From the IMG/VR virus record IMGVR_UViG_3300031718_000003, positions 10,760-74,759 of that record: a stretch of DNA of 64,000 nt. The stretch is one strand, 5' to 3'. This stretch comes from a virus. The position numbers and the translations under genes were made by a program. A model generated the notes under the pieces. It did no database searches. It was given only the letters and a program-made list of their open reading frames with translations, and was not told where the DNA came from. This document shows, piece by piece, positions 10,291 through 52,129 of this stretch. How positions within the stretch are numbered: the first letter of the stretch is position 1; each line of letters opens with the position of its first letter.

Positions 10291-11721
10291 TCACGTCATC
10301 CAGCTCCGATCCCCGCCTGGCACATGGACAGCCGACGGCCTCGGCTGCGGCTTCGATGTCAAAGTTTTCAGACCCGTGGTGGACAGGACGTACCGGACGC
10401 AATCCATCAAATGGTCGTTTTTCTTCACGATCTTGCCCTTCTCGTCCCGATGATAGCGCGAGATCTCGCGGCGAAAGTTCTGAAGATGCTCCTGAACCTT
10501 CAACCTCCCCGATACCAGCCGCTCCCACACGATTTGAATGCCGGTCTCGACAGCGTTCTCACAGGGATGGAGCATCAGACCGGCCTTGCGGTAATGCTCC
10601 ATCAGAGAACGGCCATCCACCTGCGAGCTTTGGAGGCAGCCGGGATCGACTACGCCATGTATCCACTCGCCCCTGGCGCGGATCGCCATCGCGTGGGAAG
10701 CTGGCTCGCCGGCGCTTTGATAGTGTTCGTCGTAGAGGACCAACTGCCCGTTGCCGGGATTCTCGGCCGCCCACAAGGCCGCCGTGAGCCGCCAGCCCAC
10801 ATCGAGTGCATAGACGCGCCGCCAGGAGGCGGGAATGGGCGCGGTCTTGATCAGGAAGTCCTCTTCCGGCAGGGGATAGATGGCGCCCGCGCCGAGCGAC
10901 GGCTCGCCGAGTGTCCGCGCTTTGATCTGGTAGGCGGGAGTCGTGGCAATCAGGATGTCCTTCTCCGCCTGCTCCATGTGCGGAACGTCCTTCCAACCGG
11001 CCTGTATCCAGAATTTGTGCGCCGCGGCGCCTTCCTTCGGCTCCAGAAATCCGGTTACAACCTCACTCATGCCCTGGAGCGGCGTGAAAGTGGTGTAGAG
11101 AATCCCGCGGGTTGTGACGGTGCGAAACAGGATCTCGGTATAGATGTCCTCCGGAGGCTCTTCGTCGAGCCATGCGAAGTCCAGTGAGACTCCCTCGAAG
11201 CTCTTCCGGCCCTGCTCGTAGGTCTTCAGCCCAACGCTCGACCAGGCGCCAGAGACGTGCTTTACCCAGATCGTCTCGATCGATCCGCTGAGACCTGAGC
11301 GGCGCGGAAGCGTCTTCACGATCCGGTCCGCCGGGATCATGCCAGTGCCCTGCGCTTCGAGTGTGCCTGCGAGTTTGAACTGCACGATATTGCGAGTGCT
11401 CTCCGAGGTCGTGCCGCACGCCCAGCCCGCGGTAGGTCCACTGAAGCGCTTCCCCGTCCACCACACCGGATAATTTCCAGTTAGATGACAGGCGGTCTCG
11501 TACGCGCCCGCATCTGACTTCCCGATGCGATTCGCGGCGCAGAATAATCTTTCCTTGTACGTCGCGCCGGCGGCGAAGAATTCGAGCTGCTTCGGATAAA
11601 GCGCGCGCCGGCGCGGCCCCGTCTCCGGGAAATATCCCCGCCACTTGTTGCGCTTCTGGAAGTCCAGGGCCGCCTGAATGGTGCCCAGATCGACCATGTC
11701 CGGTAAGCTGACAACGGTCAC
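10291..11721 (-). CDS. terL: Terminase large subunit
   Basis: Walker A AANRIGKS, Walker B AWLDEEPP, coupling motif TTFTP, nuclease motifs ALDVGW and NDHLMDCVRY; probable GTG start at 11721 (ORF track extends to 11832). Confidence 0.95.
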   Translation of the reverse strand: MTVVSLPDMVDLGTIQAALDFQKRNKWRGYFPETGPRRRALYPKQLEFFAAGATYKERLFCAANRIGKSDAGAYETACHLTGNYPVWWTGKRFSGPTAGWACGTTSESTRNIVQFKLAGTLEAQGTGMIPADRIVKTLPRRSGLSGSIETIWVKHVSGAWSSVGLKTYEQGRKSFEGVSLDFAWLDEEPPEDIYTEILFRTVTTRGILYTTFTPLQGMSEVVTGFLEPKEGAAAHKFWIQAGWKDVPHMEQAEKDILIATTPAYQIKARTLGEPSLGAGAIYPLPEEDFLIKTAPIPASWRRVYALDVGWRLTAALWAAENPGNGQLVLYDEHYQSAGEPASHAMAIRARGEWIHGVVDPGCLQSSQVDGRSLMEHYRKAGLMLHPCENAVETGIQIVWERLVSGRLKVQEHLQNFRREISRYHRDEKGKIVKKNDHLMDCVRYVLSTTGLKTLTSKPQPRPSAVHVPGGDRSWMT

Positions 11722-12223: not shown

Positions 12224-12408
12224 ACTCGAGGTGCAGTTTTCCCTTGCATTTCCACTGATTCCCATTTAGACTGTAAAGCGTTGATAGAGCGCAGTTTATG
12301 TGAAAATATTTCATTGAACACTTATCGCCCCCCGATAAGTGTTCCGTTCGATTTCCCAATGTTTTGGCACTTTGTCGATTTGCGCTCGGCTGGGCATAGA
12401 AAAACAGG
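12224..12408. repeat. ~185-bp near-identical copy of 30018-30202 (AT-rich, origin-like part of the replication gene)
   Basis: Direct sequence identity with a few substitutions. Confidence 0.95.
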
Positions 12409-12426: not shown

Positions 12427-12463
12427 GTTGCAATATCCAGCTCACGGAAGAAGGTAGTGAGAC
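12427..12463 (+). CRISPR. Solitary CRISPR repeat (GTTGCAATATCCAGCTCACGGAAGAAGGTAGTGAGAC)
   Basis: 36/37 identical to array repeat variant 51201-51237; abuts the terS stop codon. Confidence 0.95.
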
Positions 12464-13045
12464 TCAGCTTCTGCTTTGCGCTCTCATCAGTTTCTGCTTT
12501 GCGCCCTCAAGCTCCTCTGCTGTAAATAGCTCCGCGAGCGCCGTAACGGCTACTGGGATCGCTTGGCCGCCTGGTCCGCTCAGTTCTTTGCGATCCACCC
12601 AGTCGCCCATCTCGTGCGCCACCTGTTCCTCGTGGAGGCGCATCTCGCGCAGTATCCCGGTATCGACGAGGAACTCTTCTACGACTTGGCTCTCATCGCC
12701 CGCGCCGATCGACTTCAGTTGGCAGATAACCAGCCCGGTGCTGCCGCCTGGCGCTTTGCCGGCCAGCTTCGCGGCACGCTCACGGACGACCTGGTCCATG
12801 AGTGCGAGCCGCCGGTTCAGCCGCGCGAGGCGAACTTCCTTGACCGCAGCGCCGGACTCCTTCACGCGCTTGCGCCATTCCCCGACCCAGTGGTCCACCT
12901 CGCGGGCGAACTCCGGGGTGGCCTTCCAGCGTTGGATCTGCCGCGCGCTCACTCCGAGCCGCTTGCCGATTTCATCGTTCGTCAGGCCGCCGAGCGACAC
13001 CATGCGCGCGGCTTTGTAACGCGTTTTATCCCAGGCCCAGTCCAC
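12464..13045 (-). CDS. terS: Terminase small subunit (N-terminal HTH)
   Basis: LTNDEIGKRLGVSARQIQRWK HTH and C-terminal ELSGPGGQAI motif; upstream of terL. Confidence 0.8.
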   Translation of the reverse strand: MDWAWDKTRYKAARMVSLGGLTNDEIGKRLGVSARQIQRWKATPEFAREVDHWVGEWRKRVKESGAAVKEVRLARLNRRLALMDQVVRERAAKLAGKAPGGSTGLVICQLKSIGAGDESQVVEEFLVDTGILREMRLHEEQVAHEMGDWVDRKELSGPGGQAIPVAVTALAELFTAEELEGAKQKLMRAQSRS

Positions 13046-13049
13046 GAGT

Positions 13050-13254
13050 TAGCGCACCCGGGGCACAGACCCCATCGAGCCACTGAAGATGCCGAAGACA
13101 CTCAGCAGCCACAGCACGACGCAGATGATAACCACGACGTTCAGGAAGTTCTTGATGGGCGGGGCCATCGGAATTAGGGCGCATGTCATTCAAGGTCATC
13201 CCACAAAAGCAGCACTATGACGACCAGGGTGATGATGAGACTGATAATCGGCAT
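13050..13254 (-). pseudogene. Frameshifted Thivi_2564-like small membrane protein
   Basis: MPIISLIITLVVIVLLLW, then a stop and frame change, then IPMAPPIKNFLNVVVIICVVLWLLSVFG in another frame. Confidence 0.55.
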
Positions 13255-13301: not shown

Positions 13302-13338
13302 GTTGCAATATCCAGCTCACGGAAGAAGGTAGTGAGAC
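13302..13338 (+). CRISPR. Second solitary CRISPR repeat, identical to 12427-12463
   Basis: Exact 37-nt copy. Confidence 0.95.
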
Positions 13339-13341
13339 TTT

Positions 13342-13740
13342 TCAGACCTTGGCAGTTTCCGCCGGCAGCATGGGAAGTATGATCGGCGCCGTATCTCCCG
13401 GGCTCAAAGCAACGAGTTTGGCCATTCCCTGTCGCAGCAATTCCATGCGAATCGTTTCCATCAGCACCATCTGATGTGTCGCGGCTTGGCGGGCGAGCTC
13501 GGCAACCTCCTTGGCGGACGTCACCGCTGTTGCGTTGACAACGGTCGCGGCTTCGAGACGGTTCATTTGGTCCTTCAGGCTCGAGCCGGTATCCGTTTTG
13601 AATTCCATCGCCATCGCGAGAAGCACGGGATGCAGCCTGGCGACCACGCCGAGAAAACTAATCAGCTTCCAGAGCGCGGCAAAAATAGCGATTGTGCTTA
13701 CAGCGCAGCCAGCGACCGCGGCTAAGGTTACCCAGTTCAT
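13342..13740 (-). CDS. Membrane-anchored hypothetical protein
   Basis: N-terminal TM segment and a GSSLKDQMNRLE motif, as seen in phage lysis-region membrane proteins. Confidence 0.6.
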   Translation of the reverse strand: MNWVTLAAVAGCAVSTIAIFAALWKLISFLGVVARLHPVLLAMAMEFKTDTGSSLKDQMNRLEAATVVNATAVTSAKEVAELARQAATHQMVLMETIRMELLRQGMAKLVALSPGDTAPIILPMLPAETAKV

Positions 13741-17894: not shown

Positions 17895-18134
17895 ATGAAA
17901 AAAACGTGGACTATCAACAACGGCTGGAACCGGCTTAACAATTGTGGCCAGATGATTCTTTGTGAGGTCGGCCCGCGCGACTTCGACCCAGACTGGGAAC
18001 GGCACGAACAGAATGCTGCAGCTGGTGTGCATACAGCGCCTTACGTAAACAAAGGAACCGCCTACGTTTTCGCGAGAAAGCGAGACTGGGAGGCCGCTGT
18101 CGAGTACTTGCGCGCGAACGGGTTTCTGGGCTGA
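17895..18134 (+). CDS. Hypothetical protein
   Basis: GGAG RBS, downstream of the promoter. Confidence 0.6.
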   Translation: MKKTWTINNGWNRLNNCGQMILCEVGPRDFDPDWERHEQNAAAGVHTAPYVNKGTAYVFARKRDWEAAVEYLRANGFLG

Positions 18135-18169
18135 CTGGGCTGACTCAGGAGAAAGAGGAGAAAGAAAAA

Positions 18170-18424
18170 ATGAGCCAAACAGAAACAAACACAAGATGTG
18201 CGCGCATGAAGAAGATCGGCGGAAACGAGTTTTTCTCGACATTGCGCGGAGCGAAAAGCGCCGGCAAGCGAAGGGGCTATGCGAGTGGCGCGAAAATTCT
18301 CGACACGGAAGAGGGATTCTGCCTTTTAGCTTTAGGGGAAGGCGCAAGCCAACGGTCTTATAATCTTCTGCGCCACTCCTCGACCATCGCAGAAATGCGC
18401 AATGGACGTTGGGAGGAATACTGA
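18170..18424 (+). CDS. Hypothetical protein
   Basis: GAGGAG RBS upstream. Confidence 0.6.
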   Translation: MSQTETNTRCARMKKIGGNEFFSTLRGAKSAGKRRGYASGAKILDTEEGFCLLALGEGASQRSYNLLRHSSTIAEMRNGRWEEY

Positions 18425-18565
18425 CGTGTCCCGCATGGTCAAAAGTGCGTAACAAGCTCCGCCGCGTGCCTCGGTCGCGCGAGCGATCCTCCGCATAAGC
18501 AGAGCGTCCGAAGGGAAATCGGGGCCGGGTACGTAACTCCGGCGAAAGGTTCTAACACGGAAAAA

Positions 18566-40024: not shown

Positions 40025-40177
40025 ATGAGGAAGCGGCAAAAGGTGAAACTGATCGATCCTGCCAAGATTGGGAAAAAGGGAGGGAAGCAGCGCGCCAAGA
40101 ACATGACGGCGCAGGAACGCAGCCAGAGCGCGCGCAAGGCAGCGCAGGCGAGGTGGAAGAAGGAAGCGGGCGCGTGA
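40025..40177 (+). CDS. 50-aa basic KGG-type protein (not in ORF track)
   Basis: MRKRQKVKLIDPAKIGKKGGKQRAKNMTAQERSQSARKAAQARWKKEAGA; similar to 50467-50727. Confidence 0.7.
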   Translation: MRKRQKVKLIDPAKIGKKGGKQRAKNMTAQERSQSARKAAQARWKKEAGA

Positions 40178-40440
40178 GGCTGAGGAAGCTGTGGCCTTGG
40201 CTGAGGGCTGTGGCGCTTTGGTTATTCAGCGTGGCGATACTGCTGGTCTGGAACCATGGGTTTCATTTGTTCTATCCCGACACCTGGGAAGGGTACCGGA
40301 ACGGCCACTACAACAAGTCGGCGTTCTCGCTCGTGGTGCTCGCCGGGGTGACGTACTGGCTGGTTTGGATGACGCGAAAGAAGAAGGCGGGCGGCTAAAG
40401 AGGAAAAGCTCAAAGGCGAAGAAGAGGGAAAAAGCAGACT

Positions 40441-40986
40441 GTGGCTGAAGTAGGTCATCCATTTCGCTACCACTCAGGAGTGGTGAATACCAAGAAGGAA
40501 ATCCTGGCGCGGGCCATCGAGCTTGTTCGGAACGCCATAATCCTTGCGCCCGATCTCCCGTCCCATGCGCTCGCTGCGCAGGTCATCGAAGAGGCCGACC
40601 ACGAGTTACTCTCCCCGCTCGGTACCGGTCTTGTGCAGACCTTTTTCGTCCGGTTGATTTATCAGGAACGTGCAAGGATTGCGCGCCAGGCGCAACTAAA
40701 GTTGCCGGGGTTTGAGGAACTTCCGCTCCGTATCTCGACTCCAGAGGGAGGCCGCCCGCTTCTGGAGAGGTCTAGAATTACGCAGGTACGCGGGTACTTG
40801 GTGGTCCTGAAAAAGCGTCACCATGAACGCTTAAGGAACGATCCAAAAATCGCGCTGGTTGAGGCGCTAATCAAACGGATGCTCAAGTACACCCGCAAGC
40901 ATCCGGGTATAACAGTTGGCGAAATCGTAAAACTGGAAGTGGAAAACCGGGATTTTACGCAGGGCGGTTTTACGGGAAATCAATAA
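40441..40986 (+). CDS. Hypothetical protein
   Basis: 181 aa ORF in the rightward operon. Confidence 0.55.
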   Translation: MAEVGHPFRYHSGVVNTKKEILARAIELVRNAIILAPDLPSHALAAQVIEEADHELLSPLGTGLVQTFFVRLIYQERARIARQAQLKLPGFEELPLRISTPEGGRPLLERSRITQVRGYLVVLKKRHHERLRNDPKIALVEALIKRMLKYTRKHPGITVGEIVKLEVENRDFTQGGFTGNQ

Positions 40987-41321
40987 CTTGCAGAAATGCA
41001 ATATATCCCAAACCCGCTACAGAAACGACGTGGGGCGAAAGAGGAAGGCGGCAAGAGTGAGTGACAACCAAAATGCAGTAGCCAGATGGAAGCGCTACCC
41101 GGTACGGATCAGCCAACTGATTGAAGAGTTACAGGAACTGAAGGCGGAGCATGGCGATCTCGAAGTCTGGCACGAGTACGATCCCCTCAGTTGCTCTGAT
41201 GATCCAATACGCGAACCGGTCTTGCATATCGAAGAGATCGACGATGCAGGCGACCAGGAGAGGAAGCGCGTGGTGATCGGTCGCGTTTGCGTGGACGACG
41301 TGGACGACGACGAAGATCCCG

Positions 41322-42044
41322 GTGAAGGGAAGGAGGGCCGATAAAGTGCGCAGGCGGTTCTGGAGCGATGCCGAGGTCGCTCGCTTGCGGAATCTATTCC
41401 CAACGCGGCCCACCAAAGAAGTTGCCCGGATGCTGAACCGCACCGTGTGCGCGGTCAACGGAACAGCCCACAAGTACGGCATCGCCAAGTCCCAGGAGTT
41501 TCTCGATAGCGGGGAAAGCGGCCGCTTGCGCAAGGGCCATCACGATGGACGGGGAAGCCGCTTTCGATTCCAGAAAGGCATCGTACCGTTCAACAAGGGT
41601 CTGCGCCGGCCACGCTGGCACACGGGGCGCATGCGCGAGACGCAATTCAAAAAAGGCGAGCGGTCGGGAATGGCCGCCCGGAACTACCGGCCCATCGGCA
41701 CGATCATGCCCGATACCCAAGGGTTCCTGCACATCAAGGTGCAAGACCACGAGGGGCGGATGGGCTGGCACCCGGAAGTCTGGCCCATGTACAACCGATA
41801 TCTGTGGGAGCAGCATCACGGCCCGATCCCTCCGAAGCACCTGGTCGTGTTCAAGGACGGGAACCGCGCGCATTGCGTGATCGAGAACCTGGAGCTGATT
41901 TCAATGGCCGAGAACGCGCGGCGCAATCGGATGTGGAACATTCTGCCACGCGAGTTGGCGGAGGTGATTCAGTTGCAGGGCGTACTGAAGAGAAAGATCG
42001 GGAGGCTGAGAGATGGCAAAGAACAAAATCAGCGACCTGCGTGA
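41322..42044 (+). CDS. HNH endonuclease-motif protein
   Basis: RFQKGIVPFNKG, TQFKKG, HGPIPPKHLVVFKDGN...ENLELISMAENARRN. Confidence 0.85.
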   Translation: MKGRRADKVRRRFWSDAEVARLRNLFPTRPTKEVARMLNRTVCAVNGTAHKYGIAKSQEFLDSGESGRLRKGHHDGRGSRFRFQKGIVPFNKGLRRPRWHTGRMRETQFKKGERSGMAARNYRPIGTIMPDTQGFLHIKVQDHEGRMGWHPEVWPMYNRYLWEQHHGPIPPKHLVVFKDGNRAHCVIENLELISMAENARRNRMWNILPRELAEVIQLQGVLKRKIGRLRDGKEQNQRPA

Positions 42045-42300
42045 CCACTTGTTCGAAACGATTGAAGCGCTGAAGGACAAGGACAAGCCGATGGAGCTGG
42101 AGCGCGCCCGCACCATCAGCGCGGTTGCGCAAACAATCATCAACAGCGCCAAGGTTGAAGTGGATTTATTGAAAGCGATCGATGGCACCGCTATCGGGAG
42201 CAGCGCGTCCTTCTTCGGCGTTCCCGACGATGGCCCGGACCTCCGCAGGCCGAAGCGGATCAACGGAGGGGCGAACGGGCATGAGAGGTTCGCATCATGA
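42013..42300 (+). CDS. Conserved phage protein coupled to the HNH gene
   Basis: KNKISDLRDHLFETIEAL...ERARTISAVAQTIINSAKVEVD. Confidence 0.7.
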   Translation: MAKNKISDLRDHLFETIEALKDKDKPMELERARTISAVAQTIINSAKVEVDLLKAIDGTAIGSSASFFGVPDDGPDLRRPKRINGGANGHERFAS

Positions 42301-43139
42301 CCCACGAACCCAAATGCCGTATCTGTTCGTGCACCGAGGATCACGCCTGCGCCGGTGGGTGCTCCTGGGTGCATACGCCGCTCGATCGGAAGTTAGGGCC
42401 GATCTGCAGCACGTGCATCGGATTGATGGAGAAGTTGGCGGTGTTCACCGAGGATAGCCGGAACGGGAATCTGGCCGCTGTGATCCGGGCGTACAAGGAA
42501 GTGACGGCGCGGGCGCGGGCGCGGACAGACCAGGAAAGGCGGGAGGATAAACGGCATGAATCACGTTTACGAAGTGAAGTTCGAGACACGGTACACGGGA
42601 TGGGGATGGCTGGAGGATAGTGCCCGCGTTCTCGCAAATGGAAGCGCCACGAAGGCCGTTGAGATGGTTCGGCGGCACGAGATGAAAGAGTCTTTTGAGG
42701 ACTTCACCAAGGGCCACAAGCGCGTTATTCGCCGCGCCATTGGTTTTAGGATGACGGGCGTCCAACAGTTGACCCATGTCGACTACTAACGGAAGTGACG
42801 CGCGAGGAGATCGCGACATTCGAGCGCGAGCTACGAAAGGCCGGCGCATGACGAAGGCAAAAAGGCAGTCACCTCTTATCAGTTTGGCACGCGCGGCACG
42901 AAATAATCCGGGCGCGGCCTTGCAATTGGCTGCGATCAAATACCTGAAGGCCAAGGGCTGGAATGTGATTTTGATTGGTGAGATCGAGATTCAGACCTGG
43001 GACGCCGGAGATGCAGCCAAAGGGAAACACAAGCTGGCCGTCGGTTTCCAAGGTATCGGCGCTCAATCCTCTAGGCGCAAACGGCGGATCGGTGAGGGCA
43101 GCATCCGACCGACCCCGAAGCCATGAAGGAGACGAAATA

Positions 43140-43859
43140 ATGTTCTTTCAGCGATTGCTCACTTTGGCGCTGCTGGCAACAGCAGCAAATGCGGATTCCT
43201 TGAGTTGGACCCTTGGCACAGTACTACCTGCCGGGGAGTACCGGCTCGAGCCGTTTTCCGACCCGGCTGGTGTTTCCGTGGCAACAGCCGTAAACGGCGA
43301 CGGCATCATAGTTGGGGATGTAAGTCCTTTATGGGGTGGGCCGCCTGTCTATGGCGTAATATGGGCGCCTACCGAGGACTTTCAGGGGGATGTGTACCCT
43401 GAATTTGTGTTTCCCCCCTATGCAGACGGAGACTCGGGCACGCAAGCGCTGGATATTACCGATAGCGGGCTCGTTCTATTCTCGTACGACCTGTCCAATT
43501 CAGGGCGGCCTGGAGGGTACGATATCTATGACATGAACACGGGCACGTGGTCCCTGCCCGGAGATAGCCCCGCAGACCTCGGCTGGGACCACACGCCGAG
43601 CCTCACCAATGACAAGGGCTGGAAAATTGAGTACGGGACGATTTATGACCTACCGGAAGTAGGCCACCCGGTTATCGGCGATCAAGCGTTTCTTGTCGAG
43701 ACGCCGGAGCCAGGAGGATTGTGGTTGATACTGCCGCTAGCTATGCTCCTTGTCGTTGCGCTTAACCGTTCTTCCGTGAAGGGTCGCGCACCAAGCGAAG
43801 AGGAGATTGCCGCCAACAAAGCGGCTGAGGAAGAGTGGAATCAGATGGGAGGCATTTGA
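43140..43859 (+). CDS. Secreted protein with PEP-CTERM-like sorting signal
   Basis: AAGGAG RBS, signal peptide MFFQRLLTLALLATAANAD, TPEPGGLWL followed by a TM segment. Confidence 0.7.
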   Translation: MFFQRLLTLALLATAANADSLSWTLGTVLPAGEYRLEPFSDPAGVSVATAVNGDGIIVGDVSPLWGGPPVYGVIWAPTEDFQGDVYPEFVFPPYADGDSGTQALDITDSGLVLFSYDLSNSGRPGGYDIYDMNTGTWSLPGDSPADLGWDHTPSLTNDKGWKIEYGTIYDLPEVGHPVIGDQAFLVETPEPGGLWLILPLAMLLVVALNRSSVKGRAPSEEEIAANKAAEEEWNQMGGI

Positions 43860-43910
43860 CCCTGATGACGGTGGACGAGGATTCAGAGGGGAATTATATA
43901 GATAATTCCC

Positions 43911-45710
43911 GTGACTGACCTAATGCTAAAGATCTCAGACGATCTCTCTTTGCCAAGAAATGCTGTAACCGAAAAACTGGCATGGATCGGAAGGACTGGT
44001 TCTGGGAAAACCTATGGAGCCACGAAAGCGGCTGAGCAGATGCTCGCTGCTGACGCTCAAGTCGTTACTCTCGATCCTGTTGGAGTGTGGTACGGATTGC
44101 GTCTGGCTGCGGATGGTAAATCTCCAGGGCTGACATTGCCAGTATTCGGCGGCCTCCATGGAGACATTCCGCTTGAGCCCGGAGTTGGTGCGATGATGGC
44201 CGATTTAATCGTAGATCGTGGTCTATCTGCTGTTCTGGATGTGAGCCAGTTTGAACACGACACCGAGAAGGCGCGATTCGCCGGCGACTTCGCTAGCCGC
44301 TTCTTCTTCAGGAAAAAGGCGCGGCCATCTGCCGTTCATATCTTCATTGAGGAAGCGCAGGAATTTTGCCCGGAAGAGCCGCGACGAGGAGAAGAGAACA
44401 TGGTGCATGCGTTCACCCGCATGTGGAAACTCGGGCGTAACTTTGGCATTGGCGGCTCCCTAATTACGCAGAGGCCGCAGGAAGTTAGTAAGAAGGTGCT
44501 GAACCTGGCGGAATGTGTTTTTGCTTTTCAGTTAACGGGTCCCCATGAGCGTAAGGCACTAGAAAAGTGGATAGCGGAAAGAGGCATCGACGAGGATATC
44601 GGGGCGATTCTGCCGAAACTCACGGTCGGGCAAGTTCGCGTCTGGAGCCCTGCATGGCTAAAGATATCGAAGACGATACAGATTTTACCCAAATCTACGT
44701 TCGACGCATCGAGCACTCCGGGAGTCGGCAAGCGTGCGGCCGTACGAGAACTCGCACCGATCGATCTTGAAAGATTGCGCGTCGATATGGCCGCGACCAT
44801 CGAAAAAGCCAAGGCTGAAGACCCGCGTGAGCTGCAACGCCAGGTCCGCGAGCTGAAAGCGAAGATCGCGCAGATGGATAAGGCCGCACCGGTTACGAAA
44901 GGCGGCGCGCCGGCAGACGCGGAACAGTTAAAGCGCGAATTCGACCGTGGGGCGAATTCAGTGAAGGGCCTCCTGGCTAAGGAGCTGCGCGCCTGCTCGA
45001 AGACCGCTGCAGCCATCCAGCCCGCAACGCTTGCCGCACTGCGCGACATGGCGGCAGCGGCGGCACGGGCCATAACACATGTCGAGCAAGTCCAGATGCC
45101 ATCCATGCCGAGCCTCGAAGGTGTCATCGAGCAAGCGAAGGCAACACGCTCGCCAGCGGTTCTCCCGGTGCGCACAAAAGTTCCCGTGGAGCGCACGAAA
45201 ATGGCCGCCGCGAACGGAGAGGCATCCAAAATCGGCAATACCGGTCTTCGGCGCATGCTGATCGCTCTCGCGCAGCGCCGTAACGGGATCTCCACCAAGC
45301 AGCTTGGGGTGCGAGCGGGGATCTCTAGTAAAAGCGGAACCTTCGGGACATACCTCGGGCGTGGAAGGGCCAATGGCTGGATCGCGGGAGAACGCGGGCA
45401 GTTGAAAATAACCGAGGCGGGAGTTGCGGCGCTGGGAAATTACGAGCCGCTTCCGGAGGGTAGGGAACTGCTGGAATATTGGCTGAACGAATTAGGGGAT
45501 AGCGGGGCCGGGCGCATGCTTAGCGCGCTCGCTGAACGCTACCCGCAGGGTTTTACGGCGGAGGAGCTGGGGAAACAAGCGGATATCAGTTCTGCGAGTG
45601 GCACGTTTGGGACGTACCTGGGGAGATTGCGGTCGTTGGAGCTGATTAGTGGGTCGAGGAGTGAGTTGAAAGCTAGTGATGAGTTTTGCCTATGGCTTCG
45701 GGGTCGGTAG
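43911..45710 (+). CDS. HerA/FtsK-like (DUF87) ATPase with tandem C-terminal wHTH-like repeats
   Basis: Walker A GRTGSGKT, Walker B IFIEEAQ, ITQRPQ; SGTFGTYLG appears twice. Confidence 0.85.
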   Translation: MTDLMLKISDDLSLPRNAVTEKLAWIGRTGSGKTYGATKAAEQMLAADAQVVTLDPVGVWYGLRLAADGKSPGLTLPVFGGLHGDIPLEPGVGAMMADLIVDRGLSAVLDVSQFEHDTEKARFAGDFASRFFFRKKARPSAVHIFIEEAQEFCPEEPRRGEENMVHAFTRMWKLGRNFGIGGSLITQRPQEVSKKVLNLAECVFAFQLTGPHERKALEKWIAERGIDEDIGAILPKLTVGQVRVWSPAWLKISKTIQILPKSTFDASSTPGVGKRAAVRELAPIDLERLRVDMAATIEKAKAEDPRELQRQVRELKAKIAQMDKAAPVTKGGAPADAEQLKREFDRGANSVKGLLAKELRACSKTAAAIQPATLAALRDMAAAAARAITHVEQVQMPSMPSLEGVIEQAKATRSPAVLPVRTKVPVERTKMAAANGEASKIGNTGLRRMLIALAQRRNGISTKQLGVRAGISSKSGTFGTYLGRGRANGWIAGERGQLKITEAGVAALGNYEPLPEGRELLEYWLNELGDSGAGRMLSALAERYPQGFTAEELGKQADISSASGTFGTYLGRLRSLELISGSRSELKASDEFCLWLRGR

Positions 45711-45793
45711 TCCGCTCTATCAGCGGGCGTTCGTTTGCGCCTGATCCCTCGACCACAGGAGCGCAACAGTTAAAATGAGGGAGATTAGTAAAA

Positions 45794-47530
45794 ATGGCCG
45801 TGGAAACGAAAACTTATATCGCTTATACTTACGGCTGCCCCCAGCCCAATCACCAGGTATTTAATTATGCCTTGGCCGAGATGCGCCGCCGCAACGATCT
45901 CTGGAACAAACTAGTCGAAATAGATCGCCGATTTCGCCTAGCTTCCTGGAATATCTATGCGGATGTCCCCGAACAGAAAATCGCCGATGAGTTGGCGGGC
46001 GTGATCAGGGCGTGGCGCGAAGAACTCAAGGGCCGCCGGCAAAAGGCGCGCCGCCGCGTGGATGCCACGGATCTCGTGGAAAAGATCAAAACTGCGAAGA
46101 TGGAATTACGAGTCGCCTCTAAAACCGCTAGAATTGCCCGCCGTGCGGCCATCGAACGAAACCGGGCGGCGCTGAAGACCCTGGACGAATTACGCCGGTC
46201 CGAAGTCAATAAGGCGTGTCTTGCGAGCAATCTCTACTGGTGTAACTGGGATGAAGTGCTCGCAAAATACGAAGTAGCGCGAGTTCGCGCCATGAAGGCC
46301 GGGGTACTGCTACGTTTTCATGCATGGAGCGGCGTTGGAAAACTCACTGTGCGGTTCCAAAAAGGGCTCGCTTCCGATCTGGTGTTTGGTGGGGATACGA
46401 GATTGCAAATCGATCCCGTCAACAGTGACGCCTGGAATTCCCCGGCGCGCAGTGTCCGCGGAAAAAGTATGTATACAAAAATTCGTATACGCATGGGATC
46501 ACACAATCGCAAACCTGTATGGTTCGAAGCGCCCATGGCGATGCACCGCCCGTTGCCGGAGAGAAGCGTGATCCGCACCGCCGCGATCGCCTCCGAGCAG
46601 ATCGGAGGCGTTTTGCGCTGGCACGTCATCCTAACGCTTGAACTGCCATCTGCGCGTCAGGCGAGGATCGGTCCGGCGGTAGGTGTAGATATCGGATGGC
46701 GCTTACTGCCTGGAAGGCTGCGGGTCGCATACTGGGTCGATGAATATGGCGGCAAAGGCGAAATCGCGCTCTCCGACTCCATTGTCTCGCAATTCGCAAA
46801 AGTACGGGATCTTGATGCAATCTTGGGAAATCATTTCGAACTCGCAAAGGTAAAACTTGGTGCGTGGCGCGCGGGGTATTTCGAACCGCTGCCGGAATGG
46901 CTCAATCTCACCCGTATGGATCAGTGGAGAGATCAGCGCCGGTTCTATGAGCTTTGGACACTCTGGAAGGATTCCCGATTTGCTGGCGACACTTATGGAT
47001 TCGATACCGTATCCGAGTTTGCCGAGCGCTACGCTCATTTGCGGAACTGGCGCGAGAACTTACAGGATCAGGTCATCGCCCGCAGGAAGGACACGTACCG
47101 GAAAGCCGTATGCGATCTGCTCCGGAACCACGGGGACGTGTTTCTTGAGAAATTCGATCTTCGCAACATCGCTGAAACACCGGACCCGGAGACGAGTCCC
47201 ACAGTAGTAGTAATGGATTCGGCTCGCCGCCGCGTGATTGCCGCGCCTGCGAGTTTGCGTGAGATGCTGGTCCATAAGGGCCAGTGGATGGAGGTTCCAG
47301 CACCGGGGACCACGCAGGAATGCGCCTGGTGCGGTTATGCCGCTGCCTGGGATGCGGCCCCAAGCATACTGCATCGTTGTGGAGGATGCGGAAAGCTCTG
47401 GGATCAGGATGAGAATGCAGCAGTCAACATCCTGCGGCGTGGTTTAGCGCAGATTGGGAGGGATTGGAAGCCGGAATTCGATCCGCGAAAAGCGGACGGG
47501 ATGGAAGTGGCCGAAACCGTTGCGGGTTAA
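45794..47530 (+). CDS. cas12m: Type V CRISPR effector, Cas12m (V-M / C2c4 / V-U1)-like
   Basis: 578 aa, Arg-rich helical REC region, RuvC motifs VGVDIGWR / FLEKFDL / WDQDENAA, Zn finger CAWC..CGGC; array begins 14 nt downstream with Cas12m-like repeat layout (CCCAGCT...GGGCGAAGG...AGAC). Confidence 0.82.
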   Translation: MAVETKTYIAYTYGCPQPNHQVFNYALAEMRRRNDLWNKLVEIDRRFRLASWNIYADVPEQKIADELAGVIRAWREELKGRRQKARRRVDATDLVEKIKTAKMELRVASKTARIARRAAIERNRAALKTLDELRRSEVNKACLASNLYWCNWDEVLAKYEVARVRAMKAGVLLRFHAWSGVGKLTVRFQKGLASDLVFGGDTRLQIDPVNSDAWNSPARSVRGKSMYTKIRIRMGSHNRKPVWFEAPMAMHRPLPERSVIRTAAIASEQIGGVLRWHVILTLELPSARQARIGPAVGVDIGWRLLPGRLRVAYWVDEYGGKGEIALSDSIVSQFAKVRDLDAILGNHFELAKVKLGAWRAGYFEPLPEWLNLTRMDQWRDQRRFYELWTLWKDSRFAGDTYGFDTVSEFAERYAHLRNWRENLQDQVIARRKDTYRKAVCDLLRNHGDVFLEKFDLRNIAETPDPETSPTVVVMDSARRRVIAAPASLREMLVHKGQWMEVPAPGTTQECAWCGYAAAWDAAPSILHRCGGCGKLWDQDENAAVNILRRGLAQIGRDWKPEFDPRKADGMEVAETVAG

Positions 47531-47888
47531 CGATTTGCGGAGCCGTTGCAATACCCAGCTCACGGGCGAAGGAAGTGAGACAATCAGTCCGGTTGGTCCC
47601 GATTCAGTCCCGATTCAGGGTTGCAATACCCAGCTCACGGGCGAAGGAAGTGAGACGATAGACACGGCAGCATCGAAAACGACACTAAATATGTTGCAAT
47701 ACCCAGCTCACGGGCGAAGGGGTAGTGGGGTCTTTTGAATTTCCACCGTCTTGATTTTCAGTCATGCTGGAATTGTGATTCCTCCGGCGTTTCCTCACTT
47801 GCTGCCTCGCTTTCCCGGCGTCCCGTGGCGCTATCCGCGACCGCTCCCGCAGGTATATCCTTGGAAGGCTCCAAGGAGAGCAAGAGCC

Positions 47889-48692
47889 ATGACGATAGCG
47901 GTCGGGGTCCTGGCAGGTGATGGGGTGGTGTTAGCAGCGGACACGGAGTACACGTGGGGCTATCTCAAAACGAGCGGAGAAAAGATATGGACCGCTGAAG
48001 GCCACGGAGCCTTGGCCATTGCGGGCGCTGGCAATGGTGCGTACTTGTCCGCAATCGCTCAGCAGATGATTGATGCGTTTAAAGCTGCGCCGAAGACGAT
48101 CTCCGTCGAGCGCCTTTACGAGAAATTCTCAGAAATCCTGACAGACTTTCATAGCAAGCATGTCATAAGGTTCGCGCATCTCGGCAGTTCGGTCGCTATT
48201 TCGCTGCTAGTCGCGCTCCAACGAGGCAAGGAGGCGTATCTTTGGGCAAGTGAAAACGATTCCCTGGAGAGATGCGGACCCTATGCGTCCATTGGTTTGG
48301 GCTGCGAATACGCCAATGCCCTTTTGGGTGAGATGTTCGCGGGTACGGCGGTGTCTTGGAAGGCGAGCGTTCCGTTGGCTGAACGCATCGCGGCCTATGC
48401 GGTGTTTGAGACGAAAAACAACGTACGGGAGTGCGGAAAAAAAACCTCTCTCGTCGCCATCCAGAAGGGGCACATTGTGGAAACGAGCGCACAGAAGATG
48501 CTGCTCATTAATTCGCACCTCAATGCGTTTTCTGAGATCCGGATCTTGGGGACGAAATATGCTCTTGGGTTCCCATACCCCGACGCGACAAGTGCGTCAG
48601 AAAAACTCATGGCCTACTTGGGCGGATTGCGGCAAGACGTGCTCGCGATTGAAGGCCAAACCTTCGAAGGAAAAGGGCGGAGTCTTGAATAA
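47889..48692 (+). CDS. Proteasome-beta/HslV-like Ntn-hydrolase protein (IS cargo)
   Basis: M-T-IAVGV...GVVLAADT...KI...AGAG...SIGLG with N-terminal Thr; probable start 47889. Confidence 0.75.
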   Translation: MTIAVGVLAGDGVVLAADTEYTWGYLKTSGEKIWTAEGHGALAIAGAGNGAYLSAIAQQMIDAFKAAPKTISVERLYEKFSEILTDFHSKHVIRFAHLGSSVAISLLVALQRGKEAYLWASENDSLERCGPYASIGLGCEYANALLGEMFAGTAVSWKASVPLAERIAAYAVFETKNNVRECGKKTSLVAIQKGHIVETSAQKMLLINSHLNAFSEIRILGTKYALGFPYPDATSASEKLMAYLGGLRQDVLAIEGQTFEGKGRSLE

Positions 48693-48697
48693 CCTCT

Positions 48698-49546
48698 CTA
48701 GGCGACACGGCTCAGTTCTCTCGTCTCGGACAACGCGACGATCTCTTCGAACGACCACACATGATCCGCGATCCCGGCTGCCATTGCTGGCGTAACTCGT
48801 AGCGTCTGATGGATGCGCGCGAAGTTGTAATACATGTAGTGGAGGGCCACGGCTGCCTCGTGGTTCTCGATCTTCTTTGAAAAGCCGTTCGTCAACCGAG
48901 TGAAGCGGCGCATGGACATCCGCATTGTGAGATTCTGGCGTTCCACATAGCTCGTGCTGATATGCCTTGGTTCGGGATCGCCGAGTCGGATGATCTTCTC
49001 GGCGCCGGTGCAAACCGCAGGGCTGTACCGCTTTTGCGGCTCGGGTTCGTTGCCGAAGTATTTCACGAGCTGCGCGTAATCCACTTCGTCGGCGAAAGCA
49101 TCAATCACGGCGTTGAGGTAAACTTTGTGGCCGTCCGTGGTAAGTTGGACACGATGGGCGAGTTTGCGTTCCAGAGCGGCGATGAATTCCGTGGCGCTGC
49201 CAGCTCCCCTATCGCCCACGAGCCAGCATGGAACAAGCTTGGTATCCGCGTCGATTGCGACCCAGACCCAAGCGTCGCCTACGACGCGCTCTTCGGCCAT
49301 CTTCGTGGTGACGTTCTTCTGCTTGCAGCCGATATAGCTCCAGATCTCGTCACATTGAATACGTCGGCATTTCAGGTTGCGGAAGACGCGGTCCTGATAG
49401 CGGTAGCAGGCGATCCCGACCTCAACGAGGAGACGCGTCACCGGGCGCTTCTCGTGGCCCGTCATGCGGCAGATGGAACGGATGGAATTTCCTTCGACGA
49501 GTGCGGCAATGATTCGGGCGCGTTCTCCGATGCTCAGCCTGTTCAT
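48698..49546 (-). CDS. IS1-family transposase
   Basis: LVEGNSIRSICR HTH, IQCDEIWSY, QLTTDG, STSYVERQNLTMR...RRFTRLTNGFSKK. Confidence 0.93.
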   Translation of the reverse strand: MNRLSIGERARIIAALVEGNSIRSICRMTGHEKRPVTRLLVEVGIACYRYQDRVFRNLKCRRIQCDEIWSYIGCKQKNVTTKMAEERVVGDAWVWVAIDADTKLVPCWLVGDRGAGSATEFIAALERKLAHRVQLTTDGHKVYLNAVIDAFADEVDYAQLVKYFGNEPEPQKRYSPAVCTGAEKIIRLGDPEPRHISTSYVERQNLTMRMSMRRFTRLTNGFSKKIENHEAAVALHYMYYNFARIHQTLRVTPAMAAGIADHVWSFEEIVALSETRELSRVA

Positions 49547-49587
49547 AGGTCTATTATGCGCTAGCGCTCGCGCATAGTCAAGGGGAA

Positions 49588-50061
49588 ATGACGATGGCTA
49601 ACTGGATAGATGAGTTATGCGAGGAGATTCTCCGGGATGGCCGCCACAAAAGCGTGGCGGAGGAATTGCGATTACACCGCGCCGGGGTACTGGAGCAGGA
49701 GGGCCGGTTTTTCTTTGAAGAGCTGAGGCGAGAGGTTAAAGACGGGCTGCCGACCATAGGCACGCGCCTGGGCCTATCCCCAGCGGACCTCCGATTCGAG
49801 GGAAAGGACGATTTCTTCCAGATAACAAACCATTCTCACTACCCAGTGGTCACCGTCAAGGCCGAATACATGCTGAAGCGGGTTTTGCTCAATATCAAGA
49901 GGAAGCAGGCTGATGTCCGCACTCCAGCGGAAGAGACGCGGGATTCTATCGATTTTTGTGTCAAGGCTGACGATGAGCTTTACTTCTGCCACAAAGGAAC
50001 GACACTCCCGGGAATTGATGAGGCGGTAAAATTGGTATTCAGGCCGCTATTTTCCACCTGA
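49588..50061 (+). CDS. Hypothetical protein (IS cargo)
   Basis: 157 aa, divergent from the transposase. Confidence 0.6.
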   Translation: MTMANWIDELCEEILRDGRHKSVAEELRLHRAGVLEQEGRFFFEELRREVKDGLPTIGTRLGLSPADLRFEGKDDFFQITNHSHYPVVTVKAEYMLKRVLLNIKRKQADVRTPAEETRDSIDFCVKADDELYFCHKGTTLPGIDEAVKLVFRPLFST

Positions 50062-50080
50062 TCCTTCAGTGCCCGTTAGC

Positions 50081-50470
50081 CTATTCGCCGGGCTGTTTGG
50101 CTGCTTGTAGCGCTTTGCGCCGGGCCGCCGCCGATACACTATCGATCTCAGACTGAGGCGCGCCATTAGCTTTCAACGCAACGATCCGCAAGGCCTCCGG
50201 CACAGGAATCGCAAGATTCTCGGGTTCCTGATAGAACCGGTCTACGGCTTTTACTAGCTCAACCATGCTGAGCGGTTCTGGAATGTACGGGCGTGACGGA
50301 GAACGAGCTGCCCGTAACCCATCCAGAAAACCGACTAGGTAATTCCCCTTGTCCATGAAAACCTGCCAGTGCCGCCCGTTGCACATGCCATTCGTAAAGG
50401 GCGGAATGGCTGGCTTTTCCTGAGCTACAGAGAGCAGAGTTAACGCAAGCAGAATCAAGGCAGGTTTCAT
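50081..50470 (-). CDS. Secreted hypothetical protein (IS cargo)
   Basis: Signal peptide; NGRHW...YLVGFLDG...VDRFYQEPENLAIPV. Confidence 0.6.
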   Translation of the reverse strand: MKPALILLALTLLSVAQEKPAIPPFTNGMCNGRHWQVFMDKGNYLVGFLDGLRAARSPSRPYIPEPLSMVELVKAVDRFYQEPENLAIPVPEALRIVALKANGAPQSEIDSVSAAARRKALQAAKQPGE

Positions 50471-50727
50471 CGGGGATCTTTACCCGTTTTTCCCCACCGC
50501 GCCTGCGCAGCTCGCTTGGCCGAAGCCTTGCGCTGCGCTGGGCTGAGCCTTGCGTTCAAGGTGGCCGCGCCCTTTAGCCCGCCACGCCGCCCCATTTCGC
50601 GCATGATCTGAGAGACGGTGGAGCGGTCATCGAGATCTACGGGCAGTTCGGAGCCGGTGCTCTTAGCTACGATGGATGCAGCAAACTGATTGATGTCCTG
50701 CGATTTTGTCCGCGTGCGCTTGGGCAT
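50467..50727 (-). CDS. Small basic KGG / histone-H1-like protein (IS cargo)
   Basis: MGRRGGLKGAATLNARLSPAQRKASAKRAAQARW. Confidence 0.7.
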   Translation of the reverse strand: MPKRTRTKSQDINQFAASIVAKSTGSELPVDLDDRSTVSQIMREMGRRGGLKGAATLNARLSPAQRKASAKRAAQARWGKTGKDPR

Positions 50728-52129
50728 GACAGCTTCAAGTATGGCAGGTTACGGGCCAACGTCAAGCCTGTGGAAATTCAAAAGACCCCACTACCGGCGA
50801 AGGAAGTGAGACTAGGAAGCTGTATCCGGCTCCCCGCGTTCACATTCGTTGCAATACCCAGCTCACGGGCGAAGGAAGTGAGACCGATCAGTGCAAGGCG
50901 TACTCGCCGAATCACAAGGGGTTGCAATACCCAGCTCACGGGCGAAGGGAGTGAGACACGAAATCGGCAAGCGGCTCGGAGTGAGCGCGCGGCAGTTGCA
51001 ATACCCAGCTCACGGGCAAAGGGAGTGAGACCTAAACGGCGTTCCAGTTCCGGCGGAATGCACTCCGTTGCAATACCCAGCTCACGGGCAAAGGGAGTGA
51101 GACGTGTCAAGGCGTGGCTGAAAGCAGTCAAGCTGCTCGCCAGTTGCAATACCCAGCTCACGGGCGAAGGAAGTGAGACAGCATCACGACCGTAAGGCCG
51201 GTTGCAATATCCAGCTCACGGAAGAAGGAAGTGAGACGCTCAATCTCATGTCGCTGTGACGCCCGGATAACTGTTGCAATACCCAGCTCACGGGCGAAGG
51301 GAGTGAGACAAGATTTAGAAACAGGTTTAACTGGAAGCAGGAAGGGTTGCAATACCCAGCTCACGGGCGAAGGAAGTGAGACAATATGGTGCTGCTTCGC
51401 TTTTCAGAAGTTGCAATATCCAGCTCACGGGAGAAGGGAGTGAGACGAGACGAAAGAATCGCAGCAACAGCGGGGGTGGGGGTATTGCAATACCCAGCTC
51501 ACGGGCGAAGGAAGTGAGACTATTATGCCCCTCGGCATGTGTGAAAAGACCAACCGTAGTTGCAATACCCAGCTCACGGGCGAAGGGAGTGAGACCGTTA
51601 AAAGCATAGGCTAGGGGAAGACGGATTTTCGTTGCAATACCCAGCTCACGGGCGAAGGGAGTGAGACCGGAGCATATCCCGCTGAAGGTTCTTTGGAACG
51701 GAGTGTTGCAATACCCAGCTCACGGGAGAAGGGAGTGAGACTCGGCAGATTTCCAGCGGGACCAAAGCCCGCAGAGCGGTTGCAATACCCAGCTCACGGG
51801 CGAAGGGAGTGAGACACATCTTGAGGGTTTCACGACAGAAGAGATGCCAACAGGTTGCAATACCCAGCTCACGGGCGAAGGAAGTGAGACAAACAAGTGC
51901 CCAGGTCAACAAAAATGTTTGGGGAGTTGCAATACCCAGCTCACGGGAGAAGGAAGTGAGACGTGGTCAACCGTTCCGAACGCAAACGGCGGACCGCTGA
52001 AGGCAGAGCCGGGCTGACCCAGGAAGAATTATGTGTGCGTTGCCAATTGGGGTCAAATGGGTCTTCATCCGGCCAGCGATCATACAAGAAAATGTCATCC
52101 TGTAAATTCACGGCATAGCTTGGCATAGT

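Follow-up and report, generated by a model that had tools for sequence, protein, structure and literature searches.

A phage-borne Cas12m array carries a spacer matching the phage's own terS gene at all but one seed position

Introduction

Type V-M CRISPR systems, whose effector is Cas12m, are known mainly from plasmids and from some prophages (PMC11656645), and the Cas12m proteins characterised to date bind DNA without cutting it (PMC11013384; PMC10442227); D-E-D, H-D-D and N-D-D orthologs all bind double-stranded DNA and leave it uncut (PMC11013384). Phage-encoded Cas12m has barely been described: a September 2026 preprint presents a single case, calls it the first and reports no protospacers (10.64898/2026.09.14.751636). 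Here we analyse a Cas12m locus on a 64,000-nucleotide stretch of a soil phage genome (positions 10,760 to 74,759 of IMG/VR record IMGVR_UViG_3300031718_000003; hereafter the window, whose numbering is used for all coordinates unless another genome is named), in which spacer 5 of the array matches terS, the gene for the phage's own small terminase subunit, with one mismatch at the second position of the guide.

The locus is most like the characterised type V-M systems (MmCas12m2, GoCas12m, MsCas12m and PmCas12m; PDB 8hhl/8hio, 8pm4 and 23vw). As in those systems, an effector of ~580 aa combines a RuvC domain with a TNB domain of the zinc-finger type, the array follows immediately 3' of the effector gene, the repeats of 37 nt form a pseudoknot and a 3' hairpin, an adaptation module is lacking, and the carrier is a mobile element. 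Unlike in those systems, the carrier is a virulent-looking tailed phage and not a plasmid, the effector is only 25–50% identical to the characterised orthologs and has two of the residues with which Cas12m2 reads its TTN protospacer-adjacent motif (PAM) replaced, the array is split by an insertion sequence (IS), and one spacer matches an essential gene of the carrier.

Three further groups of described elements share features with the locus. It is well established that viruses carry arrays directed at their close relatives (PMC11656645). In the virus-borne mini-arrays of the SPV1/SPV2 portogloboviruses and in the arrays of huge phages (PMC11656645), a viral array likewise carries a spacer to a core gene of its own lineage, and the carrier's copy differs from the spacer in a way that would give self/non-self discrimination; those arrays, however, borrow the effector of the host and have documented targets in co-occurring relatives, whereas this phage brings its own, predicted binding-only effector, discrimination would depend on a single nucleotide of the seed, and no relative that the spacer targets was found. 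Non-cutting self-targeting and regulatory crRNA-like RNAs (type IV-A in Pseudomonas oleovorans; CreA/CreR, tracr-L and scaRNA; 10.1101/2023.03.03.530964; crRNA, CRISPR RNA) are similar in that a binding-only effector makes a self-match survivable and allows regulation, but those guides keep the PAM and the PAM-proximal pairing and usually act on promoters, whereas spacer 5 pairs at positions 1 and 3–37, is broken in the seed, and has its target inside an open reading frame (ORF). Finally, lone CRISPR repeats far from any array are known in phage genomes as viral solitary repeat units or RNA anti-CRISPRs (PMC11656645); the two solitary repeats described below differ from these in matching the phage's own Cas12m array, not a host system, and in bracketing the matched gene. 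What is new here is the restriction of self-mismatches to the seed across Cas12m phage lineages, and the terS case with its flanking solitary repeats.

Results

Spacer 5 differs from the resident terS at one synonymous base

We searched the window for matches to the 37-nt spacer 5, allowing up to three mismatches. The sole second match lies in terS and has one mismatch (Table 1); in dinucleotide-preserving shuffles of the window, no second match arose (0/100). Spacer and target are identical at 36 of 37 nt, and the differing base is spacer position 2, which is C in the spacer and T in the target. In the frame of the 193-aa ORF the difference is synonymous: codon 24, for Asp, reads GAT in the phage and would read GAC with the base of the spacer, a change at the wobble position. 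The phage uses GAT and GAC equally (165 vs 166 codons), so that codon usage gives no hint as to which allele is derived. The protospacer, read in the sense of the spacer, is the coding strand of terS, and the spacer 5 crRNA would pair with the template strand 70–107 nt into the gene. An earlier note, made by a model from the sequence alone, had described the 36/37 self-match, the synonymous mismatch at position 2 and the AACG flank; the window search and the reading frame bear out each of these details, and its label "spacer 5" holds when the two cas12m-proximal spacers (47582–47619 and 47657–47692) are counted together with those of the main array.

Assignment of the target gene as terS is supported by an N-terminal HTH_23 domain (E 2e-7), by matches to two PHROGs of terminase small subunits (E 5e-7 and 3e-5), and by the presence of the Pfam domain Terminase_2 in one of its few distant homologues. 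The position of terL downstream is in line with this call. A gap of ~480 nt, mostly non-coding, separates terS from terL, and a perfect 12-bp palindromic hairpin with a C5 loop (12316–12344) lies in it, between terS with its adjoining solitary repeat and terL.

Table 1. Features of the window that bear on spacer 5 and its target (one-based window coordinates)
Feature	Position	Strand	Details
Spacer 5, self-matching	50958–50994	+	Found by window search
Protospacer in terS	12939–12975	-	36/37 to spacer 5; last two bases of codon 24 to first two of codon 36 (Gln36), within the helix-turn-helix (HTH) motif
5' flank of protospacer at PAM position	12976–12979	-	AACG: Asn23 codon plus first base of Asp24
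terS, small terminase subunit, 193 aa	12464–13045	-	HTH_23; PHROGs; Terminase_2 homologue; terL downstream
terL, large terminase subunit, 513 aa	10291–11832	-	Terminase_6N (E 2e-22); 49% identity to TerL of EBPR podovirus 1
Solitary CRISPR repeat 1	12427–12463	+	Abuts terS stop codon; array orientation; in contig L131 with 2 substitutions
Solitary CRISPR repeat 2	13302–13338	+	Identical to repeat 1; 3 nt from stop codon of upstream gene 13342–13740 (-); in contig L131 with 1 substitution
cas12m, 578 aa (P0001)	45794–47530	+	RuvC triad D299/E452/D539; zinc-finger cysteines C510/C513/C529/C532
cas12m-proximal array part	47545–47720	+	Two full repeats, spacers 1–2, first 28 nt of third repeat, cut by IS
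IS1-like insertion, 3,075 bp	47721–50795	.	Inside third repeat; 34-nt terminal inverted repeats (94% complementary); 8-bp duplication
Main array part	50796–51962	+	Last 17 nt of split repeat, 16 full 37-nt repeats, spacers 3–18 (21–39 nt)

The array belongs to a full-length Cas12m and is split by an insertion sequence

The full record, a virus contig of 74,759 bp, is 91% complete by CheckV, and we found no terminal repeat in it. The contig carries terminase and tail genes and is recorded as a virus, so that the array is borne by a virus genome. Structure searches with the effector matched Cas12m entries (PDB 23vw, E 5.7e-110 over residues 4–548; Cas12m2, 8hio, E 2.4e-29; GoCas12m-like 8pm4, E 2.8e-26), and the protein also matches the TNB domain and the TnpB family. 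The catalytic triad and the four zinc-finger cysteines listed in Table 1 are invariant in an alignment of 22 homologues. By its sequence, the effector is a full-length D-E-D Cas12m of type V-M. Profile searches for Cas1, Cas2 and Cas4 across the 74.8-kb contig gave no match, with positive controls.

The array begins 14 nt past the cas12m stop codon and holds 18 spacers in total, divided by the IS; the 16 spacers of the main part span 50813–51925, and spacers 3–18, including spacer 5, are thereby separated from cas12m. The IS has duplicated its 8-bp target GGCGAAGG (47713–47720 and 50796–50803) and encodes a DDE transposase (48698–49546 on the minus strand; DDE_Tnp_IS1, E 2.4e-8), along with passenger ORFs, namely a proteasome-subunit-like ORF (47751–48692) and small ORFs. 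Two spacers of the main part are short (51180–51200, 21 nt; 51383–51409, 27 nt) among spacers of 35–39 nt, and the repeat at 51201, which follows the 21-nt spacer, is a variant resembling the solitary repeats (T10, A22, A23).

The reading direction of the guide was taken from the family. In nearly all of 117 loci encoding homologues (65 from IMG/VR and 52 from genomes), the array sits immediately 3' of the gene and shares its strand, and its repeats, ~37 nt long, have a GTTGCAA-like start and a 5-bp hairpin followed by GAC at the end; the repeat of the window folds likewise. This synteny, together with the 3' hairpin and GAC, indicates that the guide reads 5' to 3' on the plus strand, with position 1 adjoining the repeat.

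The mismatch lies in the seed of the guide

MmCas12m engages ~17 nt of its target and has very little tolerance for mismatches in the first 11 nt (10.64898/2026.10.26.761838), and the activity of PmCas12m is abolished by a single mismatch within 12 nt of the PAM (10.64898/2026.03.26.714355). Because the characterised Cas12m proteins tolerate no mismatch in the first 11–12 nt, the mismatch at position 2 should prevent stable binding of the resident terS, if the phage's Cas12m, as we infer, both binds double-stranded DNA without cutting and shares this seed intolerance.

The earlier note had also pointed out that the 5' flank of the protospacer is not TTN. The statement is true, but it is a weak argument. 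In the structure-match alignment, the residues with which Cas12m2 reads T(-3) are kept in the phage protein (W149 and Q189), whereas those reading T(-2) are replaced (Y141 by V138 and N156 by D153). Published Cas12m PAMs, moreover, range from T-rich (TTN, YTN, YTTS and TTV) to C-rich. No PAM could be derived from non-self protospacers, as no spacer had a non-self match in any collection searched. The flanks listed for the self-matches described below (ACG, GCC, ACA, TGC, TGC, AGG, AGG and CCC) share no common motif; a T-rich PAM is expected at 5–10% of random sites, and its absence among these flanks is therefore uninformative.

Self-matching spacers of other Cas12m phages mismatch their targets at the start of the guide

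We surveyed 33 whole Cas12m-bearing IMG/VR contigs, joined from pieces, together with the window's own genome. Arrays were oriented by the 3' hairpin, and the 254 spacers from the 26 genomes with a detectable array were searched against all genomes with arrays masked; for the eight genomes added last, the script detected no array in four. Self-matches of at least 30 nt were obtained for nine spacers from 8 genomes, representing 7 of 24 independent lineages. With reversed spacers as decoys, the longest match did not exceed 16 nt in the decoy's own genome or 20 nt in any genome. Matches of at least 30 nt across genomes occurred only between siblings.

Four self-matching spacers are perfect. Two of these, from one array of L007, match the phage's own Uma2-family nuclease gene (L007 9112–9184, equal to G010 17941–18013); they abut, diverge, lie on opposite strands and overlap by 5 bp at their PAM-proximal ends, suggesting that they were picked up from two sides of one DNA end or break. 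The third is a leader-proximal spacer of L060/L053. The fourth, in L057 (G028), matches the coding region of the phage's own cas12m at 33 of 33 nt (11461–11493 of that genome) and belongs to an array (17935–18472) inverted relative to cas12m, making it a candidate for autoregulation.

Four others are near-perfect: spacer 5 of the window (36/37), an L011 (G001) spacer matching the integrase gene (35/37), and spacers of L020 (G007; 33/34) and L038 (G018; 32/34). The five internal mismatches of these four spacers fall at guide positions 2, 2, 1, 2 and 4, and all remaining mismatches are at the extreme 3' end of the L011 spacer. If mismatches were placed at random, the chance of finding all five in the first 4 of 34 positions would be (4/34)^5, or ~2e-5. 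The first spacer bases vary in Cas12m arrays, so that the pattern is no artefact of the repeat–spacer boundary. The confinement of mismatches to positions 1–4 across the family implies that the retention of a self-matching spacer is influenced by pairing at the guide's start. One partial match of the opposite type, with the seed paired and the distal part not, was seen in a bacterial metagenome-assembled genome (L067) and forms a separate class.

The L011 case also bears on the origin of such spacers. L011 and four siblings are the same 36-kb phage, and L011 alone has two extra cas12m-proximal spacers (L011 11728–12427 compared with L002, L004 and L061), the newest of which is the integrase-matching spacer, with mismatches at position 2 and at the 3' end. 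Arrays of this type thus grow at the cas12m end, by recent, polarised uptake of self or kin DNA. All five genomes, L011 included, share the 251-bp target region with 100% identity; as the siblings lack the spacer, the target did not change after pickup. No cas1 was found in five other self-matching phages, among them L011, and L011 presumably gained its spacers through a host adaptation module acting in trans.

Two solitary repeats bracket terS

Two copies of a variant of the array repeat stand alone in the window, one on either side of terS, and each is placed at the stop codon of a gene on the minus strand. The interval that they enclose is 912 bp of the 74,759 bp of the contig (~1.2%), and the chance that the sole self-matched gene would be bracketed by the sole solitary repeats is ~1%. 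The copies in contig L131, a near-identical strain described below, differ from those of the window by 3 substitutions in 74 nt, one of which breaks the hairpin, compared with 1 substitution in the 582 nt of terS; this looks like decay.

Searches for relatives with the GAC allele

To look for the spacer's allele, we scanned with a wobble-degenerate pattern of the protospacer. A single match was obtained in the metagenomes of the Joint Genome Institute (JGI), the 1,168-bp contig L131. An identical TerS and Cas12m are also encoded on a 91,611-bp ENA contig. Scans for the CRISPR repeat pattern in IMG/VR and for close relatives with Cas12m returned nothing. Three soil DNA runs carry the region or parts of it, with no RNA run among those listed; their contigs showed no other base at position 12974, although contigs, unlike reads, may miss minor alleles. 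In these runs, contig breaks fall at repeats of at least 31 nt, and short pieces with 80% likeness come from other organisms. Between terS and solitary repeat 2, the ORFs for small membrane proteins are set apart from those of L131 by an 11-nt indel together with a substitution cluster (13147–13214).

Discussion

The explanation that we favour, and to which we give about an even chance, is that spacer 5 is a piece of terS derived from the phage itself or from its kin, which is self-tolerant by virtue of its seed mismatch and acts at most on kin with the GAC allele. The spacer would have been acquired from the phage's own replicating DNA or from the terS of a very close relative, into an array that has no adaptation genes of its own. 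The Cas12m–crRNA complex would then bind the resident terS negligibly or not at all, the sole difference lying at guide position 2 in the PAM-proximal seed, and the phage would tolerate spacer 5 in consequence. Any remaining target would be the GAC allele of terS in kin, where a DNA-bound, non-cutting Cas12m, paired to the template strand early in the gene, would obstruct the packaging genes of a co-infecting competitor. This explanation presumes that kin with the GAC allele exist and that the array downstream of the IS is still expressed. Of the two uses that the earlier note had proposed for the spacer, defence against a close relative is the one that fits best, given the position of the mismatch and the same pattern in three other Cas12m phages.

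A number of results weigh against it. Searches of IMG/VR, INPHARED, PLSDB, the JGI metagenomes and the three soil runs turned up no relative with the GAC allele, which is weak evidence of absence; the wobble-degenerate pattern had 0 matches in IMG/VR. The only relative recovered, L131 (terS 581/582), has the GAT allele, the AACG flank and both solitary repeats, and apart from the phage's own copies the closest other terS homologue is 37% identical. The 18 spacers had no match in INPHARED or PLSDB (by blastn with the terS region and both array parts against INPHARED, and with the main array against PLSDB), and five pattern scans of IMG/VR, with the protospacer and four other spacers, found nothing. 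A comparison of all spacers with viral databases, which the earlier note had suggested as a way to a PAM and to GAC relatives, has thus yielded no non-self match, no PAM and no GAC allele, and that allele remains hypothetical. The expected loss of binding is carried by the seed argument, as the PAM of this ortholog is not derivable; if AACG is simply no PAM, no seed mismatch would be needed and its location would be due to chance, at ~2 in 37 for this phage alone. The perfect matches of four other self-matching spacers show that a seed mismatch is no universal requirement for tolerance. At the exit of the IS we saw no promoter-like site on the plus strand, and spacer 5 may be unexpressed. Because no GAC relative was found and the only relative carries GAT, a spacer acquired from the phage itself and afterwards inactivated by a single seed substitution has about the same likelihood as one acquired from kin.

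That last possibility leads to the closest alternative, in which spacer 5 is the trace of an autoimmune accident: it would have been taken from the phage's own terS, binding would have been costly, a T to C change at spacer position 2 would have disarmed it, and it would now be neutral baggage. As a complete account we consider this unlikely, yet it explains the data nearly as well as the explanation that we favour. It agrees with the absence of the GAC allele from every collection searched and with the unchanged target in the L011 siblings. The four mismatched self-spacers differ from their targets minimally (by 1–2 nt) and in the seed only, whereas a diverged donor should scatter differences along the guide, and three of the five seed mismatches, were they changes in the target, would be non-synonymous (the frames are partly uncertain), a better fit to change in an unconstrained spacer. 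Against it, the terS mismatch is at a synonymous site of the target, which had a chance of 1 in 3 if it was the spacer that mutated; the very young L011 spacer, with two mismatches at its 3' end, is more easily explained by a diverged donor; and a useless spacer would be expected to be lost from the array with turnover.

Regulation of the resident gene, the other use proposed in the earlier note, fares less well. Weak binding of Cas12m–crRNA to the resident terS would, on this account, damp or time transcription of the packaging genes. In its favour, a self-target is survivable with an effector that binds and does not cut; pairing of the crRNA would be with the template strand early in terS, which the two solitary repeats bracket; self-matches are frequent in Cas12m phages, and the perfect ones to the Uma2 nuclease gene and to cas12m itself are possibly regulatory; and partly complementary regulatory crRNA-like RNAs are known in other CRISPR types (10.1101/2023.03.03.530964). 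Known regulatory guides, however, keep the seed and lose the distal part, and spacer 5 does the reverse, with its mismatch at the end of the guide where the characterised Cas12m proteins, intolerant of a single mismatch in the first 11–12 nt, tolerate it least. AACG, in addition, is no described Cas12m PAM, the target lies inside the ORF (codons 24–36), a setting in which roadblocking by MmCas12m has been tested alongside promoter occlusion (10.64898/2026.10.26.761838), and not at a promoter, and the IS uncouples the main array from cas12m. We therefore think tunable repression of the packaging operon quite improbable, and regulation by Cas12m a live possibility at the perfect self-match loci of other phages, not specifically at terS. 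A further alternative makes the terS region a hotspot at which DNA ends made by the terminase feed spacer pickup, with spacer 5 neutralised in the seed and two further self-spacers neutralised by gene conversion from the array, which would have placed a repeat on the PAM side of each target and so given rise to the two solitary repeats. The coincidence of the sole self-matched gene with the interval between the sole solitary repeats speaks for it, as do the location of both repeats at the exact PAM place for the native sequence that follows, their retention of a compensatory pseudoknot pair (C10–G22 to T10–A22) and the Terminase_6N type of TerL. No array spacer corresponds to DNA adjoining either solitary repeat, though, the solitary repeats of L131 look decayed and not functional, and the solitary repeat of L020 is not near its self-target; we regard this alternative as very improbable.

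A bolder extension of the explanation that we favour would make such spacers routine. Pickup of self or kin DNA would be commonplace in these phages, tolerance would be reached through mismatches at positions 1–4 or through a repeat pasted over the PAM side, and spacers to essential genes would be allele-specific weapons against near-identical kin. We hold this to be a doubtful generalisation; if true, it would amount to CRISPR kin discrimination between strains set apart by a single base.

As far as targets of the phage-borne arrays studied here can be identified, they are the carrier phages themselves, and where spacer and resident copy differ, they do so at the very seed positions on which Cas12m binding depends. 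If selection put these differences there, they show by what means a virus copes with a CRISPR system that takes samples of its own DNA, and perhaps also that a single nucleotide suffices to separate self from kin when phages compete. The self-matching spacers are also natural guide–target pairs with which the seed and PAM rules of uncharacterised Cas12m orthologs, which are of interest as compact programmable DNA binders, could be measured. For this phage, the data argue against a hard-wired CRISPR switch on DNA packaging.

Other features of the contig

Directly upstream of cas12m and on the same strand is a gene for a 599-aa HerA/FtsK-like ATPase (43911–45710), which belongs to the sole plus-strand gene block (~40150–47530) of a genome otherwise coded on the minus strand. 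Past the last repeat of the array, the 37 nt at 51963–51999 were considered as a further guide with ~30 partial self-matches and rejected, being a copy of a bipartite element dispersed through the genome; the segment 51963–52026 shares a 13–26-nt core (…CGCAAACGGCGGAC…) of this element with ~30 genome sites.

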